Assembly: GCA_964565225.1 (NCBI GenBank)
Contig: CAZMEL010000001.1
Location: 1,424 to 65,423 of the forward strand
Length of the DNA: 64,000 bases
Source of the DNA: an uncultured Thermoanaerobaculia bacterium
GTDB taxonomy: Bacteria; Acidobacteriota; Thermoanaerobaculia; Multivoradales; J023
Direction of reading: 5' to 3'
Shown: piece after piece, positions 24,662-61,841 of the stretch
Numbering within the stretch: position 1 is the stretch's first letter
How the letters are laid out: each line of letters starts with the position of its first letter
Made by a program: the position numbers and the translations under genes
The notes under the pieces: model-generated
The model's input: only the letters and a program-made list of their open reading frames with translations
The model's database searches: none
What the model was told of the DNA's origin: nothing

Positions 24662-24686
24662 GATCTGGGTGGGGAAGGAGAGAGCC

Positions 24687-31416: not shown

Positions 31417-34400
31417 ATGAGCACTTCTTCTCCAGCGGGCCGCGACCCACAGATGATCAAAGCCCTCCAAGCCCTGCGCAAAGCCCGTGGCCGGCTCGAA
31501 GAGCTGGACGCCGAGCGGCGGGAGCCCATTGCCGTTGTGGGCATGGCCTGCCGGGCGCCCGGAGCCGAAAACACCGCAGAGCTGTGGCGCATGTTGGCCG
31601 TCGGCGAGACCGGCATCACCGAGGTACCGGCCAATCGTTGGGACGTGGATGCCTTCTACGACCCGGCCGGCACCGCGGGCAAGCTGAGCACCCGCCGGGG
31701 CGGCTTCTGCGACCAGGACTGGGATGAGATGGACGCCGCCTTCTTCGGCATCGCGCCGCGGGAAGCGGAGCAGGTGGACGCCCGCCAGCGCCTCTTTCTG
31801 GAGGTGGCCCAGGAGGCCCTGGACGACGCCGGGGTGATCGTGCCCGATCTGGCCGGCGGCAACACGGGAATCTTCCTCGGGGTGTCGTCCTCGGACCAGG
31901 AGTGGTTGGAGCTGACGTCTCCGAGCACCGTGGACGAGTACACGGGCACCGGCACCTCCACCAGCGTGGCGGCCGGTCGTCTGGCCTATCTCTACGACCT
32001 GCGTGGACCGGCGGTGGCCGTGGACACGGCTTGCTCGTCGTCTCTGGTGGCCACCCACCTGGCGTGCCGCAGCCTGCGCACCGGCGAGTCGGAGATCGCC
32101 GTGGTGGGTGGCGTCTACACCATGACCAGCCCCCTCTTCGCCATCGCCCTGGATCGCCTCGGCCTGTTGTCCGCGGACGGCCGATGCCGCACCTTCGATG
32201 CCGCGGCCGCCGGTACCGTGGCCGCCGAGGGCTGCGGGGTGGTGATCCTCAAACGCCTGCGAGACGCCCGCTCCGCCGGGGATCGGGTCCTGGCCGTGAT
32301 CCGCGGCTCGGCGATCAACCAGGACGGTCGCTCCGCCGGTCTCACCGCCCCCGCCTATGCTTCCCAGGTGGCGGTGATCCGCAAGGCTCTGGACGAAGCG
32401 GGTCTGGAGCCGTCGGCGGTGCAGCACGTGGAAGCCCACGGCACGGGCACGCCCCTGGGGGATCCCGTGGAAGTGGAGGCACTGGCCACCGTCTACGGCA
32501 AGGCCGGGGAGGTCCCCTGTCTCCTGGGGTCGGTGAAGAGCAATCTGGGGCACACCATGACCGCGGCCGGCGTGCTCGGCCTGATCAAGGTGGTGCTCTC
32601 CCTGCGCCACGGGGCGGTGCCCCCGGTAGCCGGCTTCGAGACGCCGAGCCCGCACCTGGACTTGAACGGCACCCGCCTCGAAGTGGCCGATCGCCTGAGC
32701 CCTTGGCCGGCCGCGGAGGGTCCGCGGGTCGCGGCGTTGAGCTCTTTCGGCTGGTCGGGCACCAACGCCCACGTGATCTTGGGCGACGCTCCCGACGGCG
32801 AAACCGAGGCATCCGAGGCCGCGGCCGGCGAGAGGGATCATCTGCTGGTGCTCTCCGCCCGCTCCCCTCGTGCCCTGGACGATCTGCTGCGCTCATACGC
32901 GGATTTCATCGGGAAGCCCGAGGCGCCGAGCCTGCGGGATGTCTGCCACACCGCCGGCCTGCGGCGCACGGCGCGGGAGTATCGGGCCGCGGTGGTGGCC
33001 CGGGACGCCGGCACTGCGGCCGAGCGCCTGCGGTCCCTGGCCGACGCCGGAGACGAGGGCACCACGGGCGAAGGCCTGGTGCGACCGCCGGTGGAAGGGC
33101 CCCAGGCCCGCGGCCCGGTTTTTGTCTTCGCCGGCCAGGGCTCCCAATGGATCGGCATGGGCCGCGACCTGCTGAGCGGTGACGATGCCTTCGGCGAGCC
33201 CTTCCGCCTTGCCTTGGAGGAGTTCGATCGCCATTTCGAGCCCCTGGCCGGCTTCTCGGTTCGCGCCGAGCTGATGGCGGACGAAACGTCGTCCCGCCTG
33301 CACGAGACCGCCGTGGTCCAGCCCGTGCTCTGCGCCCTGCAGCTTGCCCAAGTGGCCCTGTGGTCTCGACTGGGGGTGCAGCCGGCCGCGGTAGTGGGGC
33401 ACAGCGTGGGGGAGATCGCCGCCGCGGTCACCGCCGGCATTCTCGACACGGCCGCCGCCGCTCGCCTGGCCTATCACCGAGGGCGGTTGATGCAAGAGGC
33501 GCCGTCCGACGGTCGTATGGTGGCCGTGCGTGCCGGCCGCGAGAAACTGGAGCAGCGTCTGCGCACCGCGGGCCTGGAGGACCGTGTGTCCGTGGCCGCG
33601 GCCAACTCGCCGCGCTCCGCTGTCCTGTCCGGCCCCGAGAAGGATGTGGAAGCCCTGGTCTCCGATCTGGAGGCCGAAGGTGTGGACATCCAACGTCTGC
33701 CCGTACGCTACGCCTTCCACAGTCCGCAGATGGATTCCTTCGGTGAGAAGCTGCGAGCGGAGCTGGCGGGCTTGGCGCCCCGGGCCGGGGATCTACCTCT
33801 CTACTCCACGGTGACCGGCGGTCTCGCGGCCGACGAGCCCTTGGATGCCGGATATTGGGGGCGGGGCATTCGCGCCGGGGTGCGTTTCGCCGACGCGGTG
33901 GCCGCCCTGGCGGACGACGGCTACGACACCTTCGTGGAGATCGGGCCCCATCGAGTTCTGGCCGGGGATCTGCGCCAGATCCTGGAGGACCGCGGGGTCA
34001 TCGGCACCATCCTGGCCTCGGGCCGGCGAGACAGGCCCTTCCACCCCGTGTTCCTGGAGGCGGCCGGCGGTCTCTTCGCCCGTGGCCTGCCCGTGGACCT
34101 GGCTGCCTGCGGCCTCGATGCCGGCCGCAGGGTGGACCTGCCGGCCTATCCTTGGCAGCGTCGCAAGTTGAAGCGTCGGCGTTCGGCTTCGGCCGGAGAT
34201 CCTCTGGCCGTTCCCGCCGGCTCTCTGCTCGGTGTACGGCAGGATTCGGGCGACGGACGCAAGGCGTGGAGCCGCCGGTTGAGCGTGGCGTCCGTTCCGT
34301 GGCTCGACGACCACCGGGTGGAAGGGGCGGTGGTGGTGCCGGGCACCGCCTGGGTAGAGATGGCTCTGGCCGCTCTGGCGGACCTGGCCGTCGACCGGGA

Positions 34401-37400
34401 CGGCGAGCCGGTGCGGGATCTGGAGAGCTTCGAGATCCACGGACCCCTGGTCCTGGCCGACGGCGGCGGCGCGGAGGGCGACGCCGAGGTGCAGGTGGTG
34501 TGGACGCCGGAAGACGGTACCCGTGCCGCTCGTCTGGAGATTTTCAGCCGCCCGTCCAAGGACACGCCTTGGACCTTGCACGCCACGGCCCTGCCCCGCG
34601 CCGGCTCCGAGCCCCTGCCCGAGCCCGAGGCAGGTCTGCGGGATCGGGCGGACGCGGACACGGTCTTCGATGCCGAGGAATACTACGGCCTGCTGGCCCG
34701 TTGGGGCCTGCATTACGGTCCTTCCTTTCAAGGGATTCGGCGGGTAGCCCGCCATGGCGACAGCGCGGTGGTGGAGCTCGAGATCCCGTCGGGACCGGCG
34801 GAGCAGTGGAGTGCCTATCGGCTCCATCCCGCGGTTCTGGACGCGGCCTTCCAAGGGGCCGGTGTGCTGGTGGACGAGGGTCCCGATGGCCGACCCTGGG
34901 TGCCCGTGAAGCTCGGACGTCTGTGCCTCGCCCCGGCGGCCACGGCCCTGCCTCGGTGGGCCCGGCTGGATCCCAGCCCCGGAGCATCGGAGCCGGGACG
35001 CCGTGGCTTCCATCTACGTCTGCTCACCGAAGAAGGCCGCACCGTGGTGTCGGTGGAAAACCTGGTGCTGCACCGCCTGGCGGAGGCCGAGGAGACCCGT
35101 CCGCGAGATGAGCGCTTCCGGCTCGTGGCCGAGGAGTCGGCGTTGGAGCTTTCGGGCATCGAGGAGCCAACCGTCCGACGGCTGGTGATCGACGGGGGAG
35201 GCGACGGCTTTGCCGCCGCCGTGGCCACGGCCCTGAATGCGGACCTCGGTCGGCCCGAGGAGCCGGCGATCAACGGCAAGGACGAGGTGGTCTTCGTGGC
35301 CGGCTCCGACGACTCCGACGACCTTGCCGCCTTCACCGAGAAACAATGCAAGGCCTTGGCGTCCGTGGTGCGGGCGATTGCCGGTGCCCGGCCGACGGCC
35401 GGTGCATCGACGCCCCGTTTGCTCGTGCTCACCCGCGGTACCGCGGATCCTTCCGCCGCAGCAGTCCTGGGTCTGGCCCGTACCGTGGGCCGGGAGCATC
35501 CGGAGCTGAAATGCCTGCGGGTGGACGTGGCCGTCGATCTGTCGACGGAGGACGCGGCCCGGATCCTGGCCGGCGAATCCGCCCTGACCGAAGGGGAGGA
35601 AGAGAGCCGGTGGAGCCGCGATGAGGTGTCCGGTGAGCTCGAACGCCGGGTGATGCGCCTGCGATCGGCGGAGGACGAGGATCGACCCCGGGCCCTACGA
35701 CAAGGCGAGGCGTGCCGCCTGGAAAGTGATCGTCCCGGGGTGATCGACGCCCTGCGTCTCACCGCCCTGGGCCGCCAGACCCCGGCCGCCGACGAGGTGG
35801 AGCTAGAGGTCGTGGCCGCCGGCCTCAACTTCAGCGACGTGATGAAGGCCATGGGCATCTACCCCGGCCTGCCGGACGGTCCTCTGCCCCTGGGCATCGA
35901 GTGCGCCGGCCGCGTGACCGCGGTGGGCAGCGGAGTAGAGGGTCTGGCCACGGGGGACGAGGTGATCGCTTTCGGTTTCTTCACCCTGGCTTCGCGGGTC
36001 ATCCTGCCGGCTTCGTTGGTGGTGGCCAAACCGGGCAATCTCACCCTCCCCGAAGCCGCCTGCGTGCCCGTGGCCTTCGGTACAGCCCACTATGCCCTCG
36101 ATCGTCTGGGGGCCATGGCGGCCGGCGAAAAGGTGCTGATCCACTCCGCGTCCGGTGGTGTGGGTCAAGCCGCGGTGCAGCTGGCCCGCGCGGCCGGTGC
36201 CGAGATCTTCGCCACCGCCGGCACGGAGGCCAAGCGCCAGTTCTTGCGCGAGCAGGGGATCGAGCACGTGATGGACTCCCGGTCGTTGGATTTCGTCCGT
36301 CAGATCCATGAGATCACCGACGGTCGCGGCTTGGACCTGGTGCTCAACTCCCTGGCCGGGGAGGCCCTGGCCGCCGGTCTCGACTGCCTGGCCGAGGGTG
36401 GGCGGTTTCTGGAGCTGGGCAAGCGAGACATCTACGGAGACAGCGCTCTGGGCATGGCGCCGTTCCGGCGCAACCTGTCGTTTTTCGCCATCGACCTGGA
36501 TCAGATGTGCCGGCGCAAACCCGAGCGGGTGGGAGCCCTGCTCCACGAGCTGGTGCCCCGCTTCGAGAGCAAAGAGCTGGTGCCGCCCACCTTCGAGCTG
36601 ATCCCGGTCGCCGACGTGCAAGAGCCTTTCCGCACCATGTCCCGTGGCCGTCATCTGGGAAAGCTGGTGATCGACTTCGAGAAAGCCGAGGGTCTACCGG
36701 CGGCCCCGCCGTCGGAGCTGCGCTGCGATGCCGTCGGCGTCTGGATTCTCACCGGCGGTCTCGGTGGCCTGGGCCTGCGGGTGGCCGATTTCCTGGTGCA
36801 GCGTGGGGCCAAACGCCTGATCCTGGTGGGCCGTTCGGGCCTCGGCCCGGTGGACGGAGGCCGGCCGCCCCGAGACGACGCTCACCGGGCGGTGGAGGCG
36901 TGGCGCGAGCGCGGAGTGCGAGTGGCCGTGGCGCGAGCGGATGTGGCGCGGTGGGACGAGCTCCGAACGGCCTTGGCCGATGCCCTGGAACGTGTGGACG
37001 GCAAAGAGATTCGCGGCGTGGTTCACGCCGCCGGGGTGCTGCGGGACCGCCTGCTCATGGACCAGACCGACGACGATTGGGCCCGTGTCCTGGCCCCCAA
37101 GGTGGCCGGCGCCGTGAACCTCGCCCGCTTCCTGGAGGAGCGCGGGCAGCAGCCGGAATACTTCGTCTCGTTCTCGTCCATCTCCGCCGTCCTCGGGACG
37201 CCCGGGCAGAGCAATTACGCGGCGGCCAACGCCTTCCTCGACGCCTTCACCTACCGCCTGCGGGCCCGCGGGATCCGCGCCGCGAGCATCGGCTGGGGAC
37301 CCTGGGGCGAGGTGGGCATGGCCGCCGGTCTGAGCTCTGAGCAACGAGCGGCCATGGGCGGAGTACGCCCCCTGCCGCCGACCGACGCCCTGGCTCAGCT

Positions 37401-37878
37401 GGAGTATCTGATGGTGCGCGACGAGCCCGAGACCGTGGTGTCGCGGGTGGTGGGTGGTCGCTGGCCCGCCTTTGCCCACGGCTCGCCTTTGCTCGACCTG
37501 CCGTCCGCAGCGATGGACCGGGCCCCCGAGGACACGGACATGCCCTTGGTGGATCGCCTGCGCGGTTGGCTCGCAGATGCCCTGCAATGTGCCGCCGCCG
37601 AGGTGGACCTGAACCGTTCCTTGGTGAGCCTGGGTCTGGACTCTCTGATGGCCGTGGAGCTGAAGAACCGCGTGTTGGCTTCCACGGGCGTGGACATTCC
37701 TCTGTCCAAGCTGCTGTTGGCCCCGAGCGCAACGGCCCTGGCCGAGCAGATCCGGGAGAAGGCCGGCATTACGGCTCCCGTTCACGAATCCGTCTCTGAT
37801 GCACATTCCGAAATCGAACCCCGAACCCAACCCGAGGCTTCACCTTCGACCGAAGCCTGGGAGGAGCTGACCCTATGA
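31417..37878 (+). CDS. Type I PKS module KS-AT-DH-ER-KR-ACP (fully reducing), 2153 aa.
   Basis: [89 protein letters not shown]. Its stop overlaps the ATG of the next gene (ATGA at 37875..37878). Confidence 0.95.
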
Positions 37879-40800
37879 AGACCCTGTCCAGCGCCGCCAG
37901 GATCCTCGACGATCTGGCCTCGCGCGGCGTCCAAATGTGGCCCGAGGGAGAGCACTTGCGTCTCCGCTCGCCGGCGGGAGTGCTCGATGCCGAGGACCGT
38001 GACCGCCTGCGGGAGCACAAGGAAGACATCTTGCGTGAGCTACGCCGACGCAGCGCGACCCATCCGTTCCGCCTGGAGGTGGAGCCGGACCTGGCGGCAC
38101 GTAACGAGCCCTTCCCCCTGACCGACATTCAACAGGCCTATTGGATCGGCCGCCAGGAAGCCTTCGATCTCGGGGACGTGGCCATCCACTATTACACCGA
38201 GGTGGACTGCCGGAACCTGGACTTGCCGCGCCTCGAGCGGGCGTGGAATCGCGTGGTGCGACGCCACGACATGTTGCGGGCCGTGGTCCATGCCGTGGGT
38301 GAGCAGCAGATCCTGGCCGAGGTGCCGGACTACGAGATTCCGGTCGTGGATCTCCGGAACCTGGACGAGACGGCGCGGACCGAGGCCCTGCAAGCCTGCC
38401 GCGACGAGATGTCCCACCGGGTGCCCGACGCCGCGAGCTGGCCCTGCTTCGCCCTGCGTGCGCATCGCCTGGAGGAGGATTCGGTGCGCCTGCACGTGAG
38501 CCTGGACCTGCTGCACGTGGACGGCGCCAGCATCCTGATCCTCTTCGAGGATTGGATTCGCCTCTACGGCGACGAAGAGGCCGAGCTCGAGCCCTTGGAG
38601 CTGTCCTATCGGGATTATGTGCAGGCCGAGCATCGGCTGGCCGAATCTCCCGAGATGGAAAAGGGCCTGGCCTGGTGGCGAGACAAGGTGCGGCAGCTGC
38701 CGCCGGCACCGGACCTGCCCTTGGCCGTGGCGCCGAGCCGCCTGGAGCACACCCGCTTCGTGCGCAGGGTGCTCGAAGTCTCCCCCGACGTCTTCGCCCG
38801 TCTCAAGGAACGCGCCACGGAGATCGGCCTGACGCCCACGGCCTTCTTCCTCACGGCTTTTTCAGAAACCCTGCGGGCCTACGCCAAGGCCGCGGACTTC
38901 ACCCTCAATGTCACCCTTTTCAACCGCCTGCCCGTGCACCCGCAGGTGAACCGGCTGGTGGGTGATTTCACCAGCATGGTGCTCTTGGCCGACCGCGCTC
39001 GGGCCGGCGAGGCCCTGGAGGACCACGCCCGGCGCTTGCAGGTGGACCTGTGGGAGGCCCTCGAGCATCGCTGGGTGTCGGGGGTGAAGGTGTTGGGGGA
39101 GCTCAATCGCATTCAGAAGAGCTCGGCCGGCGGTGTGATGCCCATTGTTTTCACCAGCCTCTTGGACCTCAATACCCAGGGCTTCGCCGCCGACGTGCTG
39201 GCGCCCTTGGGAAAAGAGATCTACACCATCACGCAAACACCCCAGGTCTATCTGGACCACCAGGTGCGGGAGACCCCGGACGGCGGGGTGGTGCTGTCCT
39301 GGGACGTCGTGGAAGATCTCTTCGCCGACGGCATGGTGGAAGAGATGCTGGCCGCCTACCACCGCCTGCTGCATCGCCTGGTGGACGAGCCCGAGCTGTG
39401 GCGGGGCCCGGTCCCCGGGGTAGTGTCTCGAGGGGAGATGGAGCGTCGGCGTCGGCTCAACGACACCGCCGCGCCGATTCCCGAGACCACCCTCTACCAC
39501 TTGTTCCGGGGACGGGCGGCGGCGGATCCCGAGGCACCGGCCGTGCTCACCGCAGACCACACCCTGACCTACGGCGAGCTGGATCGTTCGAGCCGTCATC
39601 TGGGGCTGCGCCTACGGCAAGCCGGCGCCGAGCCCGACCGGCTGGTGGCGGTGAGCATGGAGAAGGGATGGCAGCAGGTGTTGGCCTCGGTGGCCGTGCA
39701 CGCGGCCGGTAGCGCCTACCTGCCGGTGGATCCGGCCCTACCGCGGGAGCGGCGGGATTACCTGCTGCGCAACGGTGAGGTCTGTGCCGTTCTCACCTCG
39801 GGCTCTGCTGCGGACGGTGGCGGTCCCTGGCCCGACGGAGTGGAGGTGATCGCCGTCGACCGTTTCTTGGCCGGCTCGGCCGTGGCCGAAGAGCCGCCGG
39901 AGCTGGAGCCGGTCCAAGGGCCGCGCCATCTTTCTCATGTGATCTACACCTCCGGATCCACCGGCATGCCCAAGGGAGTGATGGTGGAGCACCGCAGCGT
40001 GGTCAACCGCATGCTCGATATCGTCGAGCGCTTCCAGATCGGACCCGGAGACAAGGCCCTGGGCCTCACGGCTCTGCACCACGACCTTTCGGTCTTCGAC
40101 ATCTTTGGCGTGCTCACCGCCGGGGCCGCCGTAGTACTGCCGGACGAGGAGGGCCGGCGGGATCCCGGGGTTTGGCTGGAGCTGATGGCCGAGCACGGCG
40201 TGACCCTGTGGAATTCGGTCCCGGCCTTCCTGGAAATGCTTCTGGAGTATGTAGAGGACGGCGCCGCCGAAGAGGTGCCGGATGGCCTGCGGTGGATCAT
40301 TCTGGCCGGGGATTGGATTCCCGTGAGCCTGCCGGACCGAGCCCGCGCCCTGTGGCCCGAGCTCACCTTCATCGCCTCCGGCGGGCCCACGGAAACTTGT
40401 ATCTGGGATATCTGGAATCCCGTGGGTGAGGTGGATCCGGAATGGCCCAGCATCCCCTACGGCAAGCCCCTCAAGAACGCGGTCTACCACGTGCTCGACC
40501 ACAATCTGGAGCATCGTCCCACCGGCGTGGCGGGGGAGATGTACATCGGCGGTGCCGGCTTGGCCCGCGGATATTGGAAGGATCCGGAGCGCACGGCGGA
40601 GAAGTTCATCGTCCATCCGAAGACGGGGGAGCGCCTCTATCGCAGTGGCGATTGGGGACGCTACCTGCCGGACGGCAACCTGGAATTCATGGGTCGCCAG
40701 GATCACCAGGTGAAGATCCAGGGCCAGCGCATCGAGTTGGGAGAGATCGAAGCCGCCTTGACCTCCCATCCGGAGGTTCGGGCCGCGGTGGCGTCCGTGC

Positions 40801-42224
40801 AGTCGACGGATCGGGGCATGCGCCTGGTGGCTCGGGTCGTCCCCCGCACTCCCCTGGCCGGCAAGGAGGCCCTGCCCGGCAAGGAGACGGCCACGAGTCC
40901 CGACGCGGCCTCTGGTGACGGTCTTCGGAGCAGCTCCACGGATGAATACGCGGCCGGCGGAGTTTCGGTGGTGGATCCCCTGGAGCGAGTGCAATTCAAG
41001 CTCTCCTACCGGGCCCTGCGTCGTCCGGACGCCGAGGACACGGTAGTGGACCTGCCGGCGCGGGATCTGACCGCGGTGGCCGAGGCCTTTGCCCGTACCC
41101 GCAGCCGTCGGCAATGGGCCCCGGGCCTGGATCTGAGCGCCCTGGGTCGTTTCCTCACCGAGCTTTCCTTCGTCGAGGAAGAGAGCAGCCTGCACAAATA
41201 TCGCTACGGCTCCGGCGGCGGCCTCTACCCCGTGCAGCTCTACCTGGCGGTGGCGCCGGAGAGCTCACCGTCCGGCGGGGTGAGCGGCTTGGACGCCGGG
41301 CTCTACTACTACCACCCGGGGGCCCATCGCCTGCAACGAGTAGGGGACTTGCCGTCGGAGGGTGCTGCGTCCCTACATTTTGCCGCCAATCGGGAAATGG
41401 CGGAGCAAGCGGCTCTGCAGATCTTCCTGGTGGGTGAGCTGGACGCGGTGGAGCCCATGTACGGCGCCCTGGCACGGGACTTCTGCCTCTTGGAGGCGGG
41501 CATGATGTGTCAGGTGATGCGCGAGATCGCCGACACCTCGGGGGTTGCGGTTTGCCAGGTGGGTGACGTGCGAACGGACGCCCTGGCAGAGGCCCTCGGG
41601 CTGTCGGACCGACGTCTCTTCTTACACGGCCTGCTGGCCGGCGCCACGGCTGCGGACGAGCCCTCGGCCTCCGCTTCGGATGAAGGGGCCGCCGCGAGCC
41701 TCAGCCCGGACGTCCTACGCACCCGGCTGATGGAGCACCTGAGGGCCAAGCTGCCCGAGCACATGGTGCCTTCGGCCCTGGCGTTCTTGGATGAGCTGCC
41801 TCTGACCGCCAACGGCAAGGTGGATCGCGGCCGCTTGACCGAGGTGGCGGTGGACGAGGTCGAGGCCGTGCACGTACCGCCGGCCAACGAGCTGGAAGCC
41901 ACCCTGGCCGCCCTGTGGTGCGAGGCTCTGGGCCTACCCGAGATCAGTGTCGACGCGAATTTCTTCGATTTGGGCGCCAACTCCTTGTTGGCGGGCAAGG
42001 TGTTTCGCCAGTTGTGCCGCCAACTGGGAACGAGCTTCCCCTTGATCACGATCTTCCGCAAGCCCACGGTGCGCTCCCTGGCGGAGCACTTGGGGCAAGA
42101 GGATCCCCACCAGGATGGTCCGGATCTCGACCCCGCACGCCAGCGGGCCGAAAAACGTTTGGATCGACGCCGAAATCGCCGTCGCCGTCGGTCCGCGGAC
42201 GAAAAGGAGGGCCATTCTGAGTAG
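37875..42224 (+). CDS. NRPS module: TubC-type N-terminal docking domain, heterocyclization (Cy) domain, A domain with an embedded FMN oxidase (Ox) domain, and PCP. 1449 aa.
   Basis: Docking [33 protein letters not shown]. Cy N-terminus FPLTDIQQAYWIGR and motif DLLHVDGAS (DxxxxDxxS) near 38505. A core SGSTG(M)PKG, A4 HHDLSVFDIFG, LAGDWIPVSLP, and A8 GRQDHQVKIQGQRIELGEIE near 40700. A roughly 350-aa insertion follows before A10 LPLTANGKVDR near 41810; it contains RTRSRRQW and YRYGSGGGLYPVQLY (nitroreductase-like Ox). PCP FFDLGANSLLAG. Basic C-terminal tail. Confidence 0.95.
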   Translation: MKTLSSAARILDDLASRGVQMWPEGEHLRLRSPAGVLDAEDRDRLREHKEDILRELRRRSATHPFRLEVEPDLAARNEPFPLTDIQQAYWIGRQEAFDLGDVAIHYYTEVDCRNLDLPRLERAWNRVVRRHDMLRAVVHAVGEQQILAEVPDYEIPVVDLRNLDETARTEALQACRDEMSHRVPDAASWPCFALRAHRLEEDSVRLHVSLDLLHVDGASILILFEDWIRLYGDEEAELEPLELSYRDYVQAEHRLAESPEMEKGLAWWRDKVRQLPPAPDLPLAVAPSRLEHTRFVRRVLEVSPDVFARLKERATEIGLTPTAFFLTAFSETLRAYAKAADFTLNVTLFNRLPVHPQVNRLVGDFTSMVLLADRARAGEALEDHARRLQVDLWEALEHRWVSGVKVLGELNRIQKSSAGGVMPIVFTSLLDLNTQGFAADVLAPLGKEIYTITQTPQVYLDHQVRETPDGGVVLSWDVVEDLFADGMVEEMLAAYHRLLHRLVDEPELWRGPVPGVVSRGEMERRRRLNDTAAPIPETTLYHLFRGRAAADPEAPAVLTADHTLTYGELDRSSRHLGLRLRQAGAEPDRLVAVSMEKGWQQVLASVAVHAAGSAYLPVDPALPRERRDYLLRNGEVCAVLTSGSAADGGGPWPDGVEVIAVDRFLAGSAVAEEPPELEPVQGPRHLSHVIYTSGSTGMPKGVMVEHRSVVNRMLDIVERFQIGPGDKALGLTALHHDLSVFDIFGVLTAGAAVVLPDEEGRRDPGVWLELMAEHGVTLWNSVPAFLEMLLEYVEDGAAEEVPDGLRWIILAGDWIPVSLPDRARALWPELTFIASGGPTETCIWDIWNPVGEVDPEWPSIPYGKPLKNAVYHVLDHNLEHRPTGVAGEMYIGGAGLARGYWKDPERTAEKFIVHPKTGERLYRSGDWGRYLPDGNLEFMGRQDHQVKIQGQRIELGEIEAALTSHPEVRAAVASVQSTDRGMRLVARVVPRTPLAGKEALPGKETATSPDAASGDGLRSSSTDEYAAGGVSVVDPLERVQFKLSYRALRRPDAEDTVVDLPARDLTAVAEAFARTRSRRQWAPGLDLSALGRFLTELSFVEEESSLHKYRYGSGGGLYPVQLYLAVAPESSPSGGVSGLDAGLYYYHPGAHRLQRVGDLPSEGAASLHFAANREMAEQAALQIFLVGELDAVEPMYGALARDFCLLEAGMMCQVMREIADTSGVAVCQVGDVRTDALAEALGLSDRRLFLHGLLAGATAADEPSASASDEGAAASLSPDVLRTRLMEHLRAKLPEHMVPSALAFLDELPLTANGKVDRGRLTEVAVDEVEAVHVPPANELEATLAALWCEALGLPEISVDANFFDLGANSLLAGKVFRQLCRQLGTSFPLITIFRKPTVRSLAEHLGQEDPHQDGPDLDPARQRAEKRLDRRRNRRRRRSADEKEGHSE

Positions 42225-42360
42225 ACAACCCTTCACGGGCCGCCGTGCTGTGTGAGCACCGGGCTCCGGAGTCGAGCTTCGGATGCAATTCGGAGCCCAG
42301 CTCTTTGGATCGATGCGACGAATTCCTGTCCTTCTTGGTAACTCGCAGGAGATTTTCGAT

Positions 42361-45300
42361 ATGACTGCTCAAACCCCTACTGATCAGAACTCCACTGATC
42401 GAAATGTCTCAGTGGATGATCTTCATCCGGACAGCATCGCCATCGTGGGCATGGCGTGTCGCTTTCCCGGTGCCGCCGATGTGGAGGCGTTCTGGCGCCT
42501 TCTGGTGGAAGGCCGGGAGGCGATCACGTTCTTTTCCGACGACGAGCTGAAAGAAGCCGGGGTGGATCCCGTCCATTTCGAGCGCGACAACTACGTCAAG
42601 GCCGGCGCCACGCTGGACGATGTGGAGAGCTTCGACGCAGGCTATTTCGACTATCCGGCGCGAGAAGCCGTGACCCTGGACCCCCAGCAGAGAATCTTCC
42701 TGGAGGTCGCCCAAACCGCTCTGGAGTCGTCCTGCCACGCCCCGGAGACCTTCGATGGTCTGATCGGTGTTTTCGCTGGCGGCGCCCAGAACAGCTACTA
42801 TGCGCGCAATCTGGCGGCCGACCCCATGCTGCTCACCACCCCCGAGGGCTTCCAGGCCCACCTGGGGAACGACAAGGATTATCTGGCCACCCGCGTGGCC
42901 TACAAGCTCAACCTCTCCGGGCCGGCGGTGACCGTGCAAACCGCTTGCTCGACCTCCTTGGCCGCCGTTCACCTGGCGGCCCAGTCTCTGCTGGCTGGTG
43001 AATGTGATCTGGCCCTGGCCGGCGGCGTGTCGGTCAAGGTGCCCCATCGGGTGGGTTACTTTCACCAGGACGGTATGCCGTTCTCGGCCGACGGCCATTG
43101 CCGTCCTTTCGATGCCACGGCCTCGGGCACCATCTTCGGCAGCGGTGCCGGCGCCGTGGTGCTCAGGCGCCTGGAAGATGCTTTGCGCGATGGTGATCCC
43201 ATCGATGCCGTGCTGCGCGGCTCGGCGATGAACAACGACGGCTCCTTGAAGATCGGCTTCACCGCGCCGAGCATCGATGGCCAGAGCAAGGTGATCGCCG
43301 AGGCCCTGGCCGTGGCGCGCGTGGATCCGCGAACCATCGGCCACGTGGAAGCCCACGGCACGGCCACCCCCTTGGGAGATCCCATCGAGGTGGACGCCCT
43401 CATCCGCTCTTTCGACGTGGACGAGAAAGGTTTTTGTGCCCTTGGCTCGGTAAAGAGCAACGTGGGCCACCTGGAAACCGCGGCCGGTGTGGCGGGCTTG
43501 ATCAAGTCCGTGCTCATGCTGAGCCGGCGGGTCTTGGTGCCGAGCCTGCACTTCGAGAGCCCGAATCCGGAGATTCCATTCGACGAGAGCCCGTTCTTCG
43601 TGTCTCGGGAGACCCGTCCCTGGGACCGCGATGGCGCACCGCGTCGGGCCGGCGTCTCGTCCTTCGGCATCGGCGGCACCAACGTGCACACAGTGCTCGA
43701 AGAGGCGCCGGCAGTGGCCGAAGATCCCGCTGCTGAGGCCGGACCCCAGGTGCTCACGCTGTCGGCCAAGACTCCTACGGCTCTGGACGCCCTGACCGCG
43801 GCCCTGGCGGAGCAGCTGGCTGCGGACGAAGAGCTCGATCTGGCGGCAGTAGCCCAGACCACCCGTGTCGGCCGGCGCTCCCTGCCGTGTCGCCGCATCC
43901 TGGTGGCCGAGAACAAGGCCGAGGCCGTGGACGCCCTGAAGAACCTCGATCCCAAGCGGGTCTTCACCTTCCAGGCGCCCAGGAGTGGCCGATCGGCGGC
44001 CTTCCTCTTCCCGGGCGGTGGCTCCCAATATGTGGACATGGGGCGGCAGCTCTATGCCCGCGAGCCGGTCTTTCGCCAGACATTGGACCACTGCTTCGAG
44101 CTGTTACGTCCGCTGATGGACGTGGATCCCCACCAGGTTCTCTACCCGTCCGCCGATCATCGGGACCAGGCGGTGGCTCAGCTCAAAGAGACGCCCATCG
44201 CCCTGCCGATCCTGTTCTCGGCAGAATACGCCCTGGCCCGGCTGCTGATCTCTTGGGGCATCGAGCCCGCTGCCATGATCGGCCATTCGAACGGTGAGTT
44301 CGTGGCCGCCACCCTGGCCGGCGTCTTCACTCTGGAGCAGGCCCTCGACGTGGTGGCCCGCCGCGCCGCGCTGATGACCCGTCTGCCCAAGGGTTCCATG
44401 CTCTCCCTCCCCCTGCCGGTGGAGGAGGTGCGGGAGATGGTGGGTGACGACTACTCCATCGCCGCGGTGAACAGCCCCGTCTCCTGCGTGGTGTCGGGCA
44501 CGGTGGAGCAGATCGACGCCCTGGAAGAGAAGCTGGCAAGCCGCGAGCTCGACACCCGCCGGCTGCACATCGCCGTAGGTGCTCACTCCAAGATGGCCGA
44601 TGGCATCGTCGACGATCTGGTGGCGATCGTGGCCGAGCACGACCTGAACGAGCCCACCATTCCCTTCGTGTCCAATGTCACCGGGGATTGGATCCAGCCC
44701 GGAGAGGCAACGGATCCGGCCTATTGGGGCCGCCACCTGCGCCACACCGTGCGTTTCCAAGAGGCGATCGGTCGCCTGATGGAAGACCCGACGCGGATCT
44801 TGATCGAGGTGGGTCCCGGGCAGGCGTTGGGCTCTCTGGCGCGCCAGAACCTGACCACCGGCGAGAATCGCACCCTTCTGGCCACCACTCGCCAGCGCCA
44901 CGACGAGGAGGTTTCCGACTCCGTCCTGCTGGCCGAGAACGTGGCCAAGGTGTGGTTGGTGGGCGGTGCCGTGGACTGGCGCGCAGTCTACGAAGAGCAA
45001 GGTCCGCGGCGTGCCCGCGTGGTCACCTATCCCTTCGAGCGTCGGCGTTATTGGATCGAGGCCCAGAAGAGCGACGCCGGATCCGGCGACCTGGCCGCGC
45101 GCATGCAGACCTGGATGGAGGCCGAGGGCAAAGTCCTGGACCAAGAGAAGTCCGGAGACGACCGCGCCGGCCTGCTGGTGGCCTATGTGGCCCCGCGCGA
45201 CGACATGGAGGAGCGAGTGGCCGACGTCTGGCGCCAATTCTTCGGTATCGACCAGGTGGGCGTGCACGACAACTTCTTCGAGCTGGGAGGCACCTCCCTG

Positions 45301-45525
45301 CTGGCCACTCAATTGGTCAACAGCCTGCAGAAAACTTTCAAGGTGGAGCTCGATGTACCCACCTTTATGCGCTCCGCCACCGTGGCCGAGCTGTCCGAGA
45401 CCTTGGTCCGTCTGCAAGACGAGGAAGAGACGGCCCAAGCCACGGCGGTGCTCGATCGCTTGGAGCAGATGAGTGAAGACGAGATCGCGGCTCTTCTGGC
45501 ACAGACCGAGATGGCCGAAGCTTGA
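42361..45525 (+). CDS. Type I PKS minimal module KS-AT-ACP (no reductive domains), 1054 aa. The AT has atypical motifs.
   Basis: Start taken at ATG 42361 (AGGAG 9 nt upstream). The track ATG at 42283 adds 26 AT3-rich codons that look non-coding. KS TACSTSL, HGTATPLGDPIE, NVGHLETAAG. AT FLFPGGGSQY, GHSNGE, VGAHS. ACP FFELGGTSLLATQL. Confidence 0.9.
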   Translation: MTAQTPTDQNSTDRNVSVDDLHPDSIAIVGMACRFPGAADVEAFWRLLVEGREAITFFSDDELKEAGVDPVHFERDNYVKAGATLDDVESFDAGYFDYPAREAVTLDPQQRIFLEVAQTALESSCHAPETFDGLIGVFAGGAQNSYYARNLAADPMLLTTPEGFQAHLGNDKDYLATRVAYKLNLSGPAVTVQTACSTSLAAVHLAAQSLLAGECDLALAGGVSVKVPHRVGYFHQDGMPFSADGHCRPFDATASGTIFGSGAGAVVLRRLEDALRDGDPIDAVLRGSAMNNDGSLKIGFTAPSIDGQSKVIAEALAVARVDPRTIGHVEAHGTATPLGDPIEVDALIRSFDVDEKGFCALGSVKSNVGHLETAAGVAGLIKSVLMLSRRVLVPSLHFESPNPEIPFDESPFFVSRETRPWDRDGAPRRAGVSSFGIGGTNVHTVLEEAPAVAEDPAAEAGPQVLTLSAKTPTALDALTAALAEQLAADEELDLAAVAQTTRVGRRSLPCRRILVAENKAEAVDALKNLDPKRVFTFQAPRSGRSAAFLFPGGGSQYVDMGRQLYAREPVFRQTLDHCFELLRPLMDVDPHQVLYPSADHRDQAVAQLKETPIALPILFSAEYALARLLISWGIEPAAMIGHSNGEFVAATLAGVFTLEQALDVVARRAALMTRLPKGSMLSLPLPVEEVREMVGDDYSIAAVNSPVSCVVSGTVEQIDALEEKLASRELDTRRLHIAVGAHSKMADGIVDDLVAIVAEHDLNEPTIPFVSNVTGDWIQPGEATDPAYWGRHLRHTVRFQEAIGRLMEDPTRILIEVGPGQALGSLARQNLTTGENRTLLATTRQRHDEEVSDSVLLAENVAKVWLVGGAVDWRAVYEEQGPRRARVVTYPFERRRYWIEAQKSDAGSGDLAARMQTWMEAEGKVLDQEKSGDDRAGLLVAYVAPRDDMEERVADVWRQFFGIDQVGVHDNFFELGGTSLLATQLVNSLQKTFKVELDVPTFMRSATVAELSETLVRLQDEEETAQATAVLDRLEQMSEDEIAALLAQTEMAEA

Positions 45526-45627: not shown

Positions 45628-48600
45628 ATGACGAAAATTGCCGATAAGCTCAGGAATCTCTCCCCCGAAAAGCGCGCTCTCTTCGAGCGTTTGATGGCCG
45701 AAGAAAAGGCCAAGAAAGAGGCCGCTCTGGAAGCCTCGAAATTGGACATCCCCAACTTTCCGTCCGAGCCCGAGAAGCGCTACGAGCCCTTCCCGCTCAC
45801 CGACATCCAACAGGCGCAATGGTTCGGTCGCTCGGGTCTTTTCGAGCTCACCTCCGCGGCCCACGTCTACGTGGAATTCGACAGCGAGGGTCTGGACCTG
45901 GACCGTCTGGAGGAGGTGTGGAACGAGATCGTGAAGGAGAACGATCAGTTGCGCATGAAGGTGCTCGGCGACCTGCGCCAGGTGGTGCTCGAAGAGGTGC
46001 CGTACTACGAATTCAAGCGCATCGACCTCACCGGCAAGTCCGAGAAAGAGGTGGAAGAGAGCCTCGCCGAAACCCGCGCCGACATGGGCCATCAAATCCT
46101 GCCCGCCGATCAGTTCCCTATCTGGGAGGTACGGGCCTCGGTGATCGACGGCGGCCGCCTGCGCCTGCACGTGAGCTTCGATCTGATCGTGGGTGATGCC
46201 TGGAGCTTCCGGGTGCTCATGGATCACTGGGCCCAGCGCTACCACCACGGTGACGAGGCCAAGCGGGAGCCCGTGGACTACTCCTTCCGGGATTACGTGC
46301 ACGCCCTGGAAGCCTTGGAGGAAACCGAGGTCTTCCAGCGGGACCTGGCCTATTGGAAAGAGCAATTGGCCGTGTTGCCCAACCCGCCGGAGCTGCCCAT
46401 GGCCAAACAGCCGAGCGAGCTGGACGAGCATCGCTCCCTTCACTTCACCGATACCGTGGCCGCGAACGTGTGGTCCGAGCTCAAGGGTCGGATCAAAGAT
46501 CACCGATTGACCGCGTCGAACTTCTTCCTCGCCGCCTGGTCCGAGGTGGTCACGGTGTGGACCAAATCCCCCGAGTTCGCCCTCAACGTCACGGTCTTCA
46601 ACCGTCTGCCCGTGCACGAGGACGTGAACGCCGTGCTGGTGGGAGAGTTCAACTCCTTCTGCCTCTTCGGGGTCGACAACTCCGGCAAGCGTCCGTTCCA
46701 CGAGCGTGCCCTGGAGAAGCAGGAGAAGCTGTGGCGCCACATCGACCATCGTACGGTCAGCGGTGTCCGTCAGATGCGCGAGCTGGCACATATTCGCGGC
46801 ACCCAGAGCGGTGGCGCCCTGATGCCTGCGGTCTTCACCTCCACCCTGGCCCACCACGACAGCGAAGGCTGGTCGCCCTCGGTATTCCCGGGCGAATGGG
46901 TCTACGAGGTTTCGCAGACGCCCCAGGTGTGGATGGAGCATCACATCTGGGAGGACGAAGGCAAGCTCGTCCTGCACGTGGACGTGGTCGACGGTGTCTT
47001 TCCCGAGGGCATGTTCGCCGAGGTCTTCGCCGCCTACGTGCAGCTCCTCCACGAGCTGGCTCGAGATCCCGAGGCGTGGAATCGCACCGATGCCCGCCAC
47101 CTGGTGCCGGCCGAGCAGCTGCAGCTGCGGGCCGAGGTGAACAACACCGCCGCCGCCATCTCGGACGAGCTGATGCACGGCCTGATGCGCAAGCAAGCGG
47201 CGGAGCGGGGCGATACCACGGCCGTGATCTCGGCCCGCGGCAACCTCACCTACGCGGAGCTGGACTCGCGCTCCAATCGGGTGGGCCGCTTCCTGCGGGA
47301 GGCCGGCGCCGAGCCCAACGAGCTGGTGGCCGTGGTCATGGAGAAGGGCTGGGAGCAGGCCGTGGCCGCCTACGGCATCCAGAAGTCGGGCGCCGCCTAC
47401 CTCCCCATCGAGCCGGACGTGCCGACGGACCGTCTGCATCACCTGCTGAGCGTGGGTGAGTGCAAATTGGCCCTCACCCAGAGCGAGCTGGTCGCCGAGC
47501 TTTCGTGGCCCGAGGGCGTGCAGGTCTTCGCCGTGGACGGCGACGCCTTCGACGGCGTCTCCGACGAGGCCCTGGAAGATGTCCAGGGCCCGGACGATAT
47601 CGCCTACGTGATCTTCACCTCCGGCTCCACCGGGACCCCCAAGGGTGTGGTGATCTCCCACCGCGGTGCGGTGAACACCATCCTCGACATCAACGAGCGT
47701 TTCCAGGTGGACGCCGAGGATCGGGGCCTGGCCTTGGCGGCCATGGGCTTCGACCTGTCGGTCTACGACCTCTTCGGCACCCTGGCGGCGGGCGGCTCGG
47801 TGGTGATCCCGTCCAAGCAGGATCCGGATCCCTCGGAGTGGGTGCAGCTGATCGCCGAGCACGGCGTCACCCTGTGGAATTCCGTGCCGGCGCTCATGGA
47901 GATGTTGGTCACCCACGCGGAGGGCACCAAGACCGAGCTGCCTTCCTCCCTGCGTCTGGCCCTGCTCTCCGGCGATTGGATTCCTGTGAGCTTGCCCGGA
48001 CGCCTCTCCGCGGTGCGCGAAGGGATCGAGGTGATCAGCCTGGGTGGCGCCACCGAGGCTTCCATCTGGTCGATCCTGCATCCGATCGTGGCGGTGGATC
48101 CGGAGTGGAAGAGCATCCCCTACGGCAAGCCGATGAAGAATCAGACCTTCCACGTGCTGAACGGCGATCTGAAGCCGTGCCCCACCTGGACCACGGGCGA
48201 TCTCTACATCGGTGGCGTGGGTGTGGCCCTGGGCTATTGGCGGGACGACGAGAAGACCGCGGCGTCCTTCTTGGAGCATCCCGAGACCGGCGAGCGGCTC
48301 TACCGCACCGGCGATCTGGGCCGCTACCTGCCCAACGGTGAGATCGAGTTCCTCGGCCGTGAGGACAACCAGGTGAAGGTGCGGGGCTTCCGCATCGAGC
48401 TGGGTGAGATCGAGGAGAACCTCAACAAGGTAGACGGCATCGCGGCGTCCGTGGTGGCGGCCCTCGGGGCGAGCGACAACCGTCGCCTGGTGGCCTATGT
48501 CGTGCCCGCGGACGGCACCGAGCTGGACACCGAGGCCGTGCAAAAGGCCCTGGGCGCCAAGCTGCCGGAGTACATGCTGCCCCAGAGCTACGTCGCCATG

Positions 48601-48987
48601 GAGGCCCTGCCCCTGACCGCCAACGGCAAGGTGGATCGCAAGAATCTGCCGGCTCCCGAGGATGTGGGCAAGGAGAACGTCTACGTGGCGCCGCGCAACG
48701 AGGCCGAGGAGAAGCTAGCCCAGCTGTGGCAAGAAGTGCTGGACGTGGAAAAGGTGGGTGTTTACGACGACTTCTTCGAGCTGGGTGGCAACTCCCTCCT
48801 GGCCAATCAGCTCCTCTTCCGGGTCCACGACGCCTTCGGCATCGAGCTGCCCCTCTCCAAGCTCTTCGAAGCCACCACCATCGACAAGGTGGCTGTGCTC
48901 TTGGAAGAGACCTTGATCGCCCAGATGGAGGGTATGAGTGAGGAGGAGATCCAACGCCTGCTGGAAGAGGAGGCGGTAGGTGTCTGA
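45628..48987 (+). CDS. NRPS module Cy-A-PCP, Cys-type A domain, 1119 aa.
   Basis: Cy FPLTDIQQAQWFGR and SFDLIVGDAWS near 46180. A domain FDLSVYDLFGTLAAG, TLWNSVPALMEM, LLSGDWIPVSLP, GGATEASIWSILH; by eye this fits the Cys code DLYNLSLIWK. No Ox insertion. PCP FFELGGNSLLANQL. Confidence 0.95.
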   Translation: MTKIADKLRNLSPEKRALFERLMAEEKAKKEAALEASKLDIPNFPSEPEKRYEPFPLTDIQQAQWFGRSGLFELTSAAHVYVEFDSEGLDLDRLEEVWNEIVKENDQLRMKVLGDLRQVVLEEVPYYEFKRIDLTGKSEKEVEESLAETRADMGHQILPADQFPIWEVRASVIDGGRLRLHVSFDLIVGDAWSFRVLMDHWAQRYHHGDEAKREPVDYSFRDYVHALEALEETEVFQRDLAYWKEQLAVLPNPPELPMAKQPSELDEHRSLHFTDTVAANVWSELKGRIKDHRLTASNFFLAAWSEVVTVWTKSPEFALNVTVFNRLPVHEDVNAVLVGEFNSFCLFGVDNSGKRPFHERALEKQEKLWRHIDHRTVSGVRQMRELAHIRGTQSGGALMPAVFTSTLAHHDSEGWSPSVFPGEWVYEVSQTPQVWMEHHIWEDEGKLVLHVDVVDGVFPEGMFAEVFAAYVQLLHELARDPEAWNRTDARHLVPAEQLQLRAEVNNTAAAISDELMHGLMRKQAAERGDTTAVISARGNLTYAELDSRSNRVGRFLREAGAEPNELVAVVMEKGWEQAVAAYGIQKSGAAYLPIEPDVPTDRLHHLLSVGECKLALTQSELVAELSWPEGVQVFAVDGDAFDGVSDEALEDVQGPDDIAYVIFTSGSTGTPKGVVISHRGAVNTILDINERFQVDAEDRGLALAAMGFDLSVYDLFGTLAAGGSVVIPSKQDPDPSEWVQLIAEHGVTLWNSVPALMEMLVTHAEGTKTELPSSLRLALLSGDWIPVSLPGRLSAVREGIEVISLGGATEASIWSILHPIVAVDPEWKSIPYGKPMKNQTFHVLNGDLKPCPTWTTGDLYIGGVGVALGYWRDDEKTAASFLEHPETGERLYRTGDLGRYLPNGEIEFLGREDNQVKVRGFRIELGEIEENLNKVDGIAASVVAALGASDNRRLVAYVVPADGTELDTEAVQKALGAKLPEYMLPQSYVAMEALPLTANGKVDRKNLPAPEDVGKENVYVAPRNEAEEKLAQLWQEVLDVEKVGVYDDFFELGGNSLLANQLLFRVHDAFGIELPLSKLFEATTIDKVAVLLEETLIAQMEGMSEEEIQRLLEEEAVGV

Positions 48988-53940: not shown

Positions 53941-54051
53941 AACGTCGCCACCCACATGAGCCCGGGGGCGCCTTCTAGCGGCTCCGGGCTCCTTTCCCCG
54001 TTCGTCCCCCGGGACGCTCTTGGGGAAGCCTCGTCCCAAGGAGACGAAAAC

Positions 54052-55239: not shown

Positions 55240-55250
55240 GGGGGAATGTG

Positions 55251-57401: not shown

Positions 57402-57520
57402 GCCCTGTTTTCTATGGAACCCGATTTCGTGAGTCGATCCCCTCATGCTTGCGGTTCTCCTTTCGATTCTTTTTTGGATCCCGGAGCTTGAGCCTAGTGC
57501 TAGACCCGAAACCAATGAGT

Positions 57521-57536
57521 GGGGGCTCGAGCCCCC
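57521..57536. repeat. Perfect 16-bp GC palindrome GGGGGCTCGAGCCCCC in the ACAD / FG-GAP intergenic region. Hairpin-forming; a possible factor-dependent terminator or recognition site.
   Basis: Seen in the sequence; there is no downstream T-tract. Confidence 0.3.
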
Positions 57537-57556
57537 CACCCCTAGAAGGAGAAGAA

Positions 57557-59611: not shown

Positions 59612-59624
59612 TCCCATCGACGGA

Positions 59625-59650
59625 GGGCCGGCTCGCCGGCCCGCCGTTTT
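59625..59650 (+). terminator. Rho-independent terminator after the FG-GAP gene: GGGCCGG-ctcg-CCGGCCC followed by GCCGTTTT.
   Basis: Perfect 7-bp GC stem with a 4-nt loop and a T-tract, 14 nt after the stop codon. Confidence 0.55.
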
Positions 59651-59732
59651 CCGAGCCCCAACGATCGTTTTCGGAAATCGAAGGTTAAGACTGGGCTTCG
59701 TTTACGAAGCCCTTACACAAAGGAATCTCGAG

Positions 59733-61769: not shown

Positions 61770-61802
61770 TCCCTGCTTGACTGGATCGGCCCGTCAGGGC
61801 CG

Positions 61803-61841
61803 AAGGCGCCCCGGTTGCACGGAGACCGGGGCGCCTTTTCC
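61803..61841 (+). terminator. Rho-independent terminator: 11-bp stem GGCGCCCCGGT / ACCGGGGCGCC, 9-nt loop, then TTTTCC.
   Basis: Verified base by base. Lies 34 nt after the stop of the beta-propeller gene. A small extra hairpin GGCCC-gtca-GGGCC sits just upstream at 61787..61799. Confidence 0.65.

Follow-up and report, generated by a model that had tools for sequence, protein, structure and literature searches.

EpoB (EpoP), part of the epothilone synthase of Sorangium cellulosum, is the closest described counterpart of the system examined here, a nonribosomal peptide synthetase (NRPS) of 1449 amino acids (aa) encoded at 37875..42224 of a 64,000-nucleotide stretch of DNA from an uncultured Thermoanaerobaculia bacterium (GenBank assembly GCA_964565225.1, contig CAZMEL010000001.1, positions 1,424 to 65,423; hereafter the window, whose own numbering is used throughout, on the forward strand unless stated otherwise). 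EpoB has a docking domain, a heterocyclization (Cy) domain, an adenylation (A) domain with an oxidase (Ox) domain at A8/A9, and a peptidyl carrier protein (PCP) domain; it is ~1400 aa in size and takes its acyl chain, an acetyl group, from the acyl carrier protein (ACP) of an upstream polyketide synthase (PKS). Its Ox domain lies between A8 and A9 and has been suggested to contribute to dimerization, and the Ox domain of BlmIII is located after the PCP (PMC8795117). In bacillamide synthesis, the oxidase BmdC (PDB 7LY4-7LY7) is a separate protein that has an N-terminal RRE-like domain, binds the A domain non-covalently and acts on the PCP-bound thiazoline during assembly (PMC8795117). Docking domains of the beta-hairpin type serve both NRPS-NRPS and PKS-NRPS junctions (PMC9113145). 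In TubB-TubC, EpoA-EpoB, Kj12, Bamb_5915 and AerJ, a TubC_N domain stands at the N-terminus, before the Cy domain, and its partner is a short tail that follows a carrier protein.

A second group of related systems includes the assembly lines for caerulomycin and collismycin (PMC8149447), karnamicin of Lechevalieria rhizosphaerae (PMC9838390) and oxazolismycin (PMC12308425). All of them extend a heteroaryl-carbonyl starter with a non-reducing ketosynthase-acyltransferase-ACP (KS-AT-ACP) module, followed by an atypical Cy-A(Cys)-PCP-Ct module and a trans-acting flavoprotein of the acyl-CoA dehydrogenase (ACAD) type that desaturates Cys-S-PCP; the Cy domain then makes a C-C bond and the pyridine closes, and the lines also include one more NRPS module and a thioesterase of type II (PMC8149447, PMC9838390, PMC12308425). 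In karnamicin synthesis (KnmA3/A2/D/A1/A4), the starter is a 2-alkylthiazole produced by the EpoB-like KnmA3, which is organized as fatty acyl-AMP ligase (FAAL)-ACP-Cy-A-Ox-PCP (PMC9838390).

The window NRPS resembles EpoB in domain content and order, in size, and in following a PKS that ends in an ACP, and EpoB is the best solved match for its docking and Cy domains (PDB 5T7Z). The two proteins are nevertheless clearly diverged in a pairwise alignment, the A-domain code of the window protein is the variant DLFNIASIWK, and the surrounding clusters are unrelated; in contrast to the acetyl group used by EpoB, the window module should take a long, fully reduced chain from three modules that contain dehydratase (DH), enoylreductase (ER) and ketoreductase (KR) domains. 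We consider it highly probable (roughly 0.87) that this gene encodes a single EpoB-type module that converts cysteine to a thiazole and docks on the preceding PKS. What the assembly line makes after this first ring is a separate question, for which the second group of systems provides the most relevant comparison.

Domain organization of the EpoB-type module

Pfam searches of the 1449-aa protein identified a TubC_N docking domain (PF18563, aa 10-56, 46 bits, cutoff 26), a Condensation domain (aa 81-507), an AMP-binding domain (aa 545-901), a Nitroreductase domain (PF00881, aa 1113-1249, 26.9 bits, cutoff 23.5) and a PP-binding domain (aa 1343-1406, 56.6 bits). The latter corresponds to the PCP at 41901..42092, with the modified Ser in a GANS motif. 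The AMP-binding_C profile was matched over its positions 41-76 only, at aa 1279-1315, which shows that the A domain is split within its C-terminal subdomain. An A(Ox) arrangement interrupted in this way is common and was found in 37 of the 120 best homologs.

The open reading frame (ORF) of the upstream PKS gene (PKS3, 31417..37878) stops at 37878 and shares four nucleotides with the start of the NRPS gene, an ATGA start/stop overlap at 37875..37878 that can be read within CTATGAAG. An identical 4-nt overlap was present in two related clusters, one in a Thermoanaerobaculia metagenome-assembled genome (MAG; cluster L022) and one in a Candidatus Competibacteraceae MAG (L023). An earlier note on this DNA, made by a model from the sequence alone, had pointed out this overlap and had assigned the N-terminal ~60 aa to a TubC-type docking domain at a PKS-to-NRPS junction; the overlap is as it described, and the TubC_N score and the docking-fold matches given below bear out the domain.

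An oxidase domain inserted between A8 and A9

The core of the A domain, through A8 and the first beta-hairpin of the C-terminal subdomain, occupies 39507..40847, with the A8 motif GRQDHQVKIQGQRIELGEIE at 40692-40751 (aa 940-959). A9 (LPEHMVP, 41751-41771, aa 1293-1299) and A10 (LPLTANGKVDR, 41796-41828, with NGKVDR at aa 1313-1318), which together span 41751..41828, both follow the inserted segment. Since A9 is located after the insert, the insertion point is between A8 and A9. The gap from A8 to A10 is 348 aa, compared to 64-65 aa in the other two Cys modules of the window, and because it also holds the normal sequence of the A subdomain (64-65 aa elsewhere), the net insertion is ~284 aa (40848..41699), consisting of a linker, the Ox domain (aa 1034-1257, 40974..41645) and a second linker. 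These boundaries were set from motif positions and the structure model; MAFFT placed the boundary wrongly. The A domains of the other two Cys modules are uninterrupted, with AMP-binding_C matched over positions 1-76 of 76, and tblastn found neither a second Ox domain nor a second docking domain within the 64-kb window.

Several independent analyses agreed on the identity of the insert. When scanned alone, it matched TIGR03605 (SagB-family peptide dehydrogenases) with 79.6 bits and an E-value of 1.9e-22, above the cutoff of 78.4. Among PDB sequences, the BmdC oxidase was the best match (E-value 1.8e-19), followed by ThcOx. An AlphaFold2 (AF2) model of the A8-A10 segment, computed from an alignment of 22 homologous segments with the query, had a pLDDT of 81.7 overall and >90 across most of the core. 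Along the chain, the model runs from the initial beta-hairpin of the A subdomain through a linker that is disordered (aa 999-1025) into an alpha/beta core modeled with confidence (aa ~1034-1257); another, low-confidence linker (aa 1263-1272) then leads to the helix that bears A9. A Foldseek search of PDB with this model returned BmdC first (E-value 1.1e-19), then ThcOx and McbC, all of which are azoline oxidases; the list also included the interrupted A domain of TioS (5WMM).

BmdC, the best match in both sequence and fold, also allowed residue-level comparison. In this protein Arg149, Asn236 and Gly294 contact FMN and Tyr260 is the likely base (PMC8795117). In the HMMER alignment, they correspond to R1079, N1172, G1230 and Y1196, respectively, of the window protein, and all four positions are invariant or nearly so across 23 homologs. 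The motif RTRSRRQW is found at aa 1074-1081 and KYRYGSGGGLYPVQ at aa 1108-1121, and the blocks KYxYxSxGGLYPVQ, GLYYYHP and PxYG are intact and invariant across the same 23 homologs. BmdC is free-standing, whereas the oxidase core of the window protein is embedded in the A domain and lacks an RRE-like part. Sequence and model together confirm the insert as an oxidase of the SagB/nitroreductase type, which would use FMN. Relatives of the Ox fold are obligately dimeric, and by analogy with BmdC and EpoB (PMC8795117) the module probably dimerizes, as does the PKS feeding it.

The earlier note had described an A domain interrupted after A8 by a nitroreductase-like Ox domain, absent from the other two Cys modules. 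All motifs that it quoted were located, the profile search and structure prediction agree with it, and the other two modules do lack the insertion. Some details need adjustment. Its placement between A8 and A10 is correct but can be narrowed to A8/A9, and the net length is ~284 aa rather than the ~350 aa that it gave. Its comparison with EpoB, MtaD and BlmIII is right with regard to the family and to the position in EpoB, but the Ox domain of BlmIII follows the PCP (PMC8795117), and EpoB is the only confirmed positional analogue.

A docking domain and its likely partner on the upstream PKS

The beta-hairpin docking domain (TubC_N) spans aa 6-62 (37890..38060) and is separated by a linker of ~20 aa from the Cy domain, which starts at ~aa 80. 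An AF2 model based on an alignment of 17 N-termini (pLDDT 81) has helices at residues 6-16, 39-47 and 49-62 and strands at residues 20-24 and 27-31, i.e., the order alpha-beta-beta-alpha-alpha. The top 11 Foldseek matches of this model in PDB were all docking domains, from AerJ, EpoB, Kj12A/B/C, Bamb_5915 and TubC, with a root-mean-square deviation of 0.8 Å for AerJ and ~1.1 Å for EpoB. As in those systems, the domain is N-terminal and precedes Cy, and a short tail follows the upstream carrier protein, although in the window the pairing is predicted. EpoA-EpoB is a closer precedent than TubC for a PKS-to-NRPS junction.

The PKS gene at 31417..37878 ends with the tail WEELTL (37858..37875), which is a candidate short linear motif. 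Comparison of the tails encoded upstream of the docking domain in four related clusters revealed WEELTL in the window PKS, WEEFTL in L022, where the upstream protein is KS-ACP, WEECTL in L023, where it is FAAL-ACP, and FVELSI in L024 (another metagenome contig); the consensus WEExTL is drawn from these four clusters only. In another locus, L025, a Cy-A(Ox)-PCP protein has no TubC_N domain and the upstream tail is unrelated. A basic second beta-strand (HLRLRS) in the docking domain and an acidic tail fit the salt-bridge model (PMC9113145). These sequence patterns suggest that the WEExTL tail of the upstream carrier protein is the likely partner of the docking domain. As the tail is found on a PKS module, a KS-ACP and a FAAL-ACP, the WEExTL/docking pair would be a clean natural portable pair that could be reused in engineering.

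At the other end of the protein, the C-terminus (42150-42224) is strongly basic and ends with RLDRRRNRRRRRSADEKEGHSE. PKS4, the gene that follows, begins 59 nt further on, and a 50-aa N-terminal extension precedes its KS domain. The basic tail and this extension may form a docking pair of a different kind.

Cyclization domain, substrate and proposed chemistry

The Cy domain of the Ox module (aa 81-507, 38115..39395) has DLLHVD, the DxxxxD signature of Cy domains, at the position where HHxxxDG would stand, and contains the complete Thr/Asp/Gln set (VFTS and LDHQ). Mutation of these Asp, Thr and Gln residues in Cy domains severely affects cyclodehydration (PMC9547227). When the first 517 aa were compared with PDB, EpoB (5T7Z) was the best match (E-value 4.5e-120), and the alignment started from residue 9 and thus included the docking domain.

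The ten-residue code of the A domain is DLFNIASIWK. Its closest single-module homologs, P0072 (from cluster L022) and P0089, have DLYNIASIWK, so that the variant DL[YF]NIASIWK is common to all three proteins, and the counterpart in L023 has the canonical Cys code DLYNLSLIWK. Because the code is Cys-like and the L023 counterpart is canonical, cysteine is the likely substrate of the Ox module.

The proposed reaction sequence is as follows. The docking domain (aa 6-62) would capture the acidic-hydrophobic WEELTL tail of the upstream PKS, which ends in an ACP and should bear a fully reduced acyl chain. The A domain would load cysteine on the PCP, and the Cy domain would acylate its amine with this chain and cyclodehydrate the product to a PCP-bound 2-alkylthiazoline. 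The Ox domain, held on two flexible linkers, could then remove two hydrogens to give a 2-alkylthiazole-4-carbonyl-S-PCP, which would be handed to the KS of PKS4. Oxidation of thiazoline to thiazole at the first heterocycle is thus the best reading of the sequence and the models.

Some observations weigh against this assignment. Four of the ten positions in the code DLFNIASIWK depart from the canonical Cys code. Both profile scores for the insert (26.9 versus 23.5 for Nitroreductase and 79.6 versus 78.4 for TIGR03605) are barely above their cutoffs, and the Ox assignment therefore rests on the agreement of several independent lines and on no single strong score. A single Ox domain is considered to serve two rings in the bleomycin assembly line, and domain positions alone cannot prove that oxidation occurs at the first ring only. 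From these same observations one could argue that the insert is a dead relic, that it also oxidizes downstream rings, or that the module loads serine and makes an oxazole. We regard these options as very improbable: the four cofactor-binding and catalytic positions known from BmdC and the conserved blocks are kept in 23 homologs, the Ox core is modeled with pLDDT >90 over most of its length, and the A domain retains the Cys-type frame DLxN....IWK with a canonical code in its L023 counterpart; typical Ser codes look quite different. An EpoB-type module that forms a thiazole from cysteine remains the preferred reading.

Related clusters and atypical cyclization domains downstream

The gene for the Ox module is followed by PKS4 (42283..45525), which is a KS-AT-ACP protein without KR in Pfam searches and shares 49% identity with the corresponding part of P0472, a CaeA2-like protein; it would pass a beta-keto thioester to the next protein, NRPS2. 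NRPS2 (45628..48987) consists of an atypical Cy domain (VFTS, MEHH), an uninterrupted A domain with the Cys code DLYNLSLIWK, and a PCP. It is followed by a free-standing Cy-like protein of 495 aa with degenerate motifs (MEHL; 48980..50467; referred to as the lone Cy below), a gene that does not appear in the earlier note and that represents the fourth Cy-like domain of the window. NRPS3 (50554..53940) has a Cy-type domain without the dyad Thr (VFAS), an A domain with the same Cys code DLYNLSLIWK, and a PCP. Pfam searches then identified a stand-alone thioester reductase (53956-55239) and, after a type II thioesterase ORF (55119-56051), an ACAD (56187-57401). The thioesterase ORF overlaps the reductase ORF by 121 nt and its Pfam match begins at residue 72; its start is thus uncertain and is probably further downstream.

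The core of this cluster, which corresponds to 10653-57401 of the window, recurs in L022, L023 and L024. The shared part includes genes for an MMPL protein, a LolA-like protein and a 440-aa protein, an acyl source (either PKS genes or FAAL-ACP), and the docking-Cy-A(Ox)-PCP protein, and continues with KS-AT-ACP, Cy-A-PCP, the lone Cy, the reductase and ACAD. L023 has FAAL-ACP in place of the PKS genes, and in this cluster the NRPS3 counterpart is absent and the lone Cy is kept. The lone Cy is also conserved in L022, and the window, L023 and L024 all have ACAD after the reductase. Two other loci were informative. In L029 (JGI 3300031740, Ga0307468_100000030), a PCP-Cy-A(Ox)-PCP protein is followed by KS-AT-ACP-Cy-A-PCP-R (R, reductase) with a canonical Cy domain, and the surrounding 10 kb contains neither ACAD nor a lone Cy; this locus can serve as a natural control for a thiazole-malonate-thiazoline-aldehyde route. 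L027, from Kroppenstedtia pulmonis, encodes FAAL-Cy-A-PCP, KS-AT-ACP-Cy-A-PCP-C and C-A-PCP-R proteins (C, condensation domain), an FAD monooxygenase, ACAD and a type II thioesterase.

All downstream condensation-type domains of the window have the Cy-type DxxxxD signature and none has HHxxxDG. However, the full Asp-Thr-Gln set is present only in the Cy domain of the Ox module, and the other three Cy-type domains are substituted. The NRPS2 domain keeps VFTS but has MEHH, i.e., Glu in place of Asp and His in place of Gln; the lone Cy has IFTS and MEHL; and the NRPS3 domain has Ala in place of Thr (VFAS) and keeps LDHQ. The substitutions are the same or equivalent across the clusters that hold each domain (three for NRPS2 and the lone Cy, two for NRPS3). 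In a set of ~155 homologous Cy domains, Glu never occupies the Asp position, and 158 of 160 retain Thr. The ExH signature was restricted to NRPS2-type proteins among the homologs compared; a search with the NRPS2 Cy domain returned short fragments only, of which the two closest alone have ExH. The lone Cy is 40-47% identical between related clusters, compared to 54-57% for the other Cy domains, and evolves faster than they do.

Two thiazolines or a pyridine

The earlier note had predicted a product with one thiazole and two thiazolines. The thiazole at the first ring is the best reading, as discussed above, but with altered catalytic sets in the downstream Cy domains the two thiazolines are doubtful, and any prediction of the product past the first ring is insecure. 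To form them, NRPS2 and NRPS3 would each condense and cyclodehydrate a cysteine, with the lone Cy assisting as in tandem Cy-Cy arrangements, and the reductase would free an aldehyde or alcohol. The canonical Cys code in both A domains and the DxxxxD signature in every downstream condensation-type domain are consistent with such a line. Glu-for-Asp variants of the Cy7 motif also occur in a few other multi-Cy synthetases, so that Glu may be competent, and L029 does run from a thiazole through KS-AT-ACP and a canonical Cy-A-PCP to a reductase. On the other hand, one member of the Asp-Thr(-Gln) set is missing from every downstream Cy-type domain, and mutation of this set has severe effects on cyclodehydration (PMC9547227); the related clusters that hold each domain retain its substitutions, although Glu was seen in none of the ~155 homologous domains and a residue other than Thr in only two of 160. 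The lone Cy stays in L023 though the third Cys module is gone, the conserved ACAD would be left without a role, and L029, whose Cy domain is canonical, has neither of these two genes. We therefore view the two-thiazoline product as rather doubtful and rank it slightly below the alternative route to a pyridine, which is itself tentative.

In this alternative, the thiazole would be processed by the logic of karnamicin and caerulomycin synthesis to a 2-alkyl-4-(pyridin-2-yl)thiazole, followed by reductive release. PKS4 would add an unreduced malonate unit, ACAD would desaturate Cys-S-PCP on NRPS2, the atypical Cy domain would form the C-C bond and close the pyridine, and the lone Cy-like protein would serve in recruitment, as does the Ct domain of CaeA2. 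By comparison with the described lines, where a pyridine is closed from a heteroaryl-carbonyl unit, malonyl and dehydrocysteine, the downstream gene set resembles this logic more than a plain two-thiazoline line. KnmA2 and CaeA2 are KS-AT-ACP-Cy-A-PCP-Ct proteins, KnmD and CaeB1 are ACADs that act on Cys-S-PCP, and KnmA4 and CaeA4 are type II thioesterases; equivalent parts are present as separate genes in the window, L023 and L024, and L023 begins with FAAL-ACP, as does KnmA3. In the window, a KS-AT-ACP without KR (PKS4) is located directly 5' of a Cy-A(Cys)-PCP (NRPS2), and the cluster encodes both ACAD and a type II thioesterase; an EpoB-like module, a C-like element and one further NRPS module complete the likeness. 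The ACAD of the window shares 55% identity with its counterpart in L027, a CaeA2-like cluster that also ends with a reductase, and the two give an identical PDB match profile. The helper Gln is likewise missing from the CaeA2-like Cy domains (LDHA), a neighbor-joining tree places the NRPS2-type Cy clade beside the CaeA2-like clade, and the control L029, with its canonical Cy, has neither a lone Cy nor ACAD nearby.

Several features do not fit the pyridine route. The window proteins are separate and not fused in megaproteins. There is no fused Ct domain: NRPS2 ends after its PCP, and in place of the shortened Ct the next gene encodes a full-length, free-standing, degenerate Cy-like protein, which is 39-43% identical to true Cy domains. 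The CaeA2-like Cy domains keep Asp, so that the Glu of NRPS2 is not a common signature. The extra module NRPS3 is Cy-type and Cys-specific, compared to a Leu-specific C-A-PCP, and release would occur by the stand-alone reductase. No amidohydrolase or hydroxylase, including a pyridine hydroxylase, and no methyltransferase was found among the window ORFs scanned. The neighbor-joining tree carries no bootstrap values, and its grouping may reflect taxonomy. CaeA2/KnmA2 and CaeB1/KnmD were represented in these comparisons by proxies (P0472, P0483, P0495 and the L027 ACAD) and not by the published proteins, and the proxies gave a weak sister-group signal in the tree and no common Glu signature. They were recovered with a concatenated query of PKS4, NRPS2 and the lone Cy, which retrieved CaeA2-like fused proteins; in a representative homolog search, multi-Cy giants dominated the ranking and no CaeA2-like proteins surfaced.

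The closest PDB matches of the window ACAD are short/branched-chain and cyclohexanecarboxyl-CoA dehydrogenases, and it may be a CaeB1-like cysteinyl-PCP desaturase. A role as a second oxidase of the azoline or pyrroline type is not favored, as it is far from the prolyl-carrier-protein dehydrogenase (4IRN, E-value 1e-47). Two other ideas were set aside: homology of the lone Cy to Ct was rejected when BLAST gave no match to the Ct domain of P0472, and Glu as a signature of pyridine formation was dropped, since CaeA2-like fused proteins keep Asp.

Other genes in the window

The three genes upstream of the Ox module together should supply its saturated acyl chain. Pfam domain orders are ACP-KS-AT-AT-DH-ER-KR-ACP for PKS1 (16286-24661) and KS-AT-DH-ER-KR-ACP for both PKS2 (24669-31388) and PKS3 (31417-37878). 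The motifs of the two AT domains in PKS1 are YASH and YAFH, respectively; we take the domain order of this protein to resemble the mixed loading/first-extension type of module that is typical of PKSs from myxobacteria. The PKS genes are preceded by the MMPL, LolA-like and other genes. On the reverse strand, 2506-4080 encodes a 524-aa protein with phage tail-sheath domains, located beside an ABC transporter and a histidine kinase; it may be part of a prophage remnant or of a contractile injection system and does not appear to be related to the cluster. The region after ACAD (57398-63099) encodes an FG-GAP/ASPIC repeat protein, an SGL/NHL repeat protein and a beta-eliminating lyase (PF01212).

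Implications

The Ox module is a textbook example and adds nothing new on Ox or docking chemistry; standard cluster-annotation software is expected to report its domains. It does illustrate that an interrupted A domain and a docking domain can be recovered by reading raw sequence. The part of interest is the cluster around it, which is conserved across phyla and combines rare Cy substitutions, a lone Cy and an ACAD. One speculative explanation, which we consider unlikely in its full form, is that an uncharacterized family in uncultured bacteria of several phyla (among them Thermoanaerobaculia and Candidatus Competibacteraceae) represents a disassembled karnamicin-type thiazolyl-pyridine line, in which the Glu-containing Cy domain would form the C-C bond and close the six-membered ring, the lone Cy would take the place of the fused Ct domain and recruit the ACAD desaturase, and the MMPL and LolA-like proteins would export the lipid-like product. 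If the pyridine route is true, pyridine-forming assembly-line chemistry would reach beyond the Gram-positive producers described so far, and a flavoprotein would be recruited without the need of a fused Ct domain.

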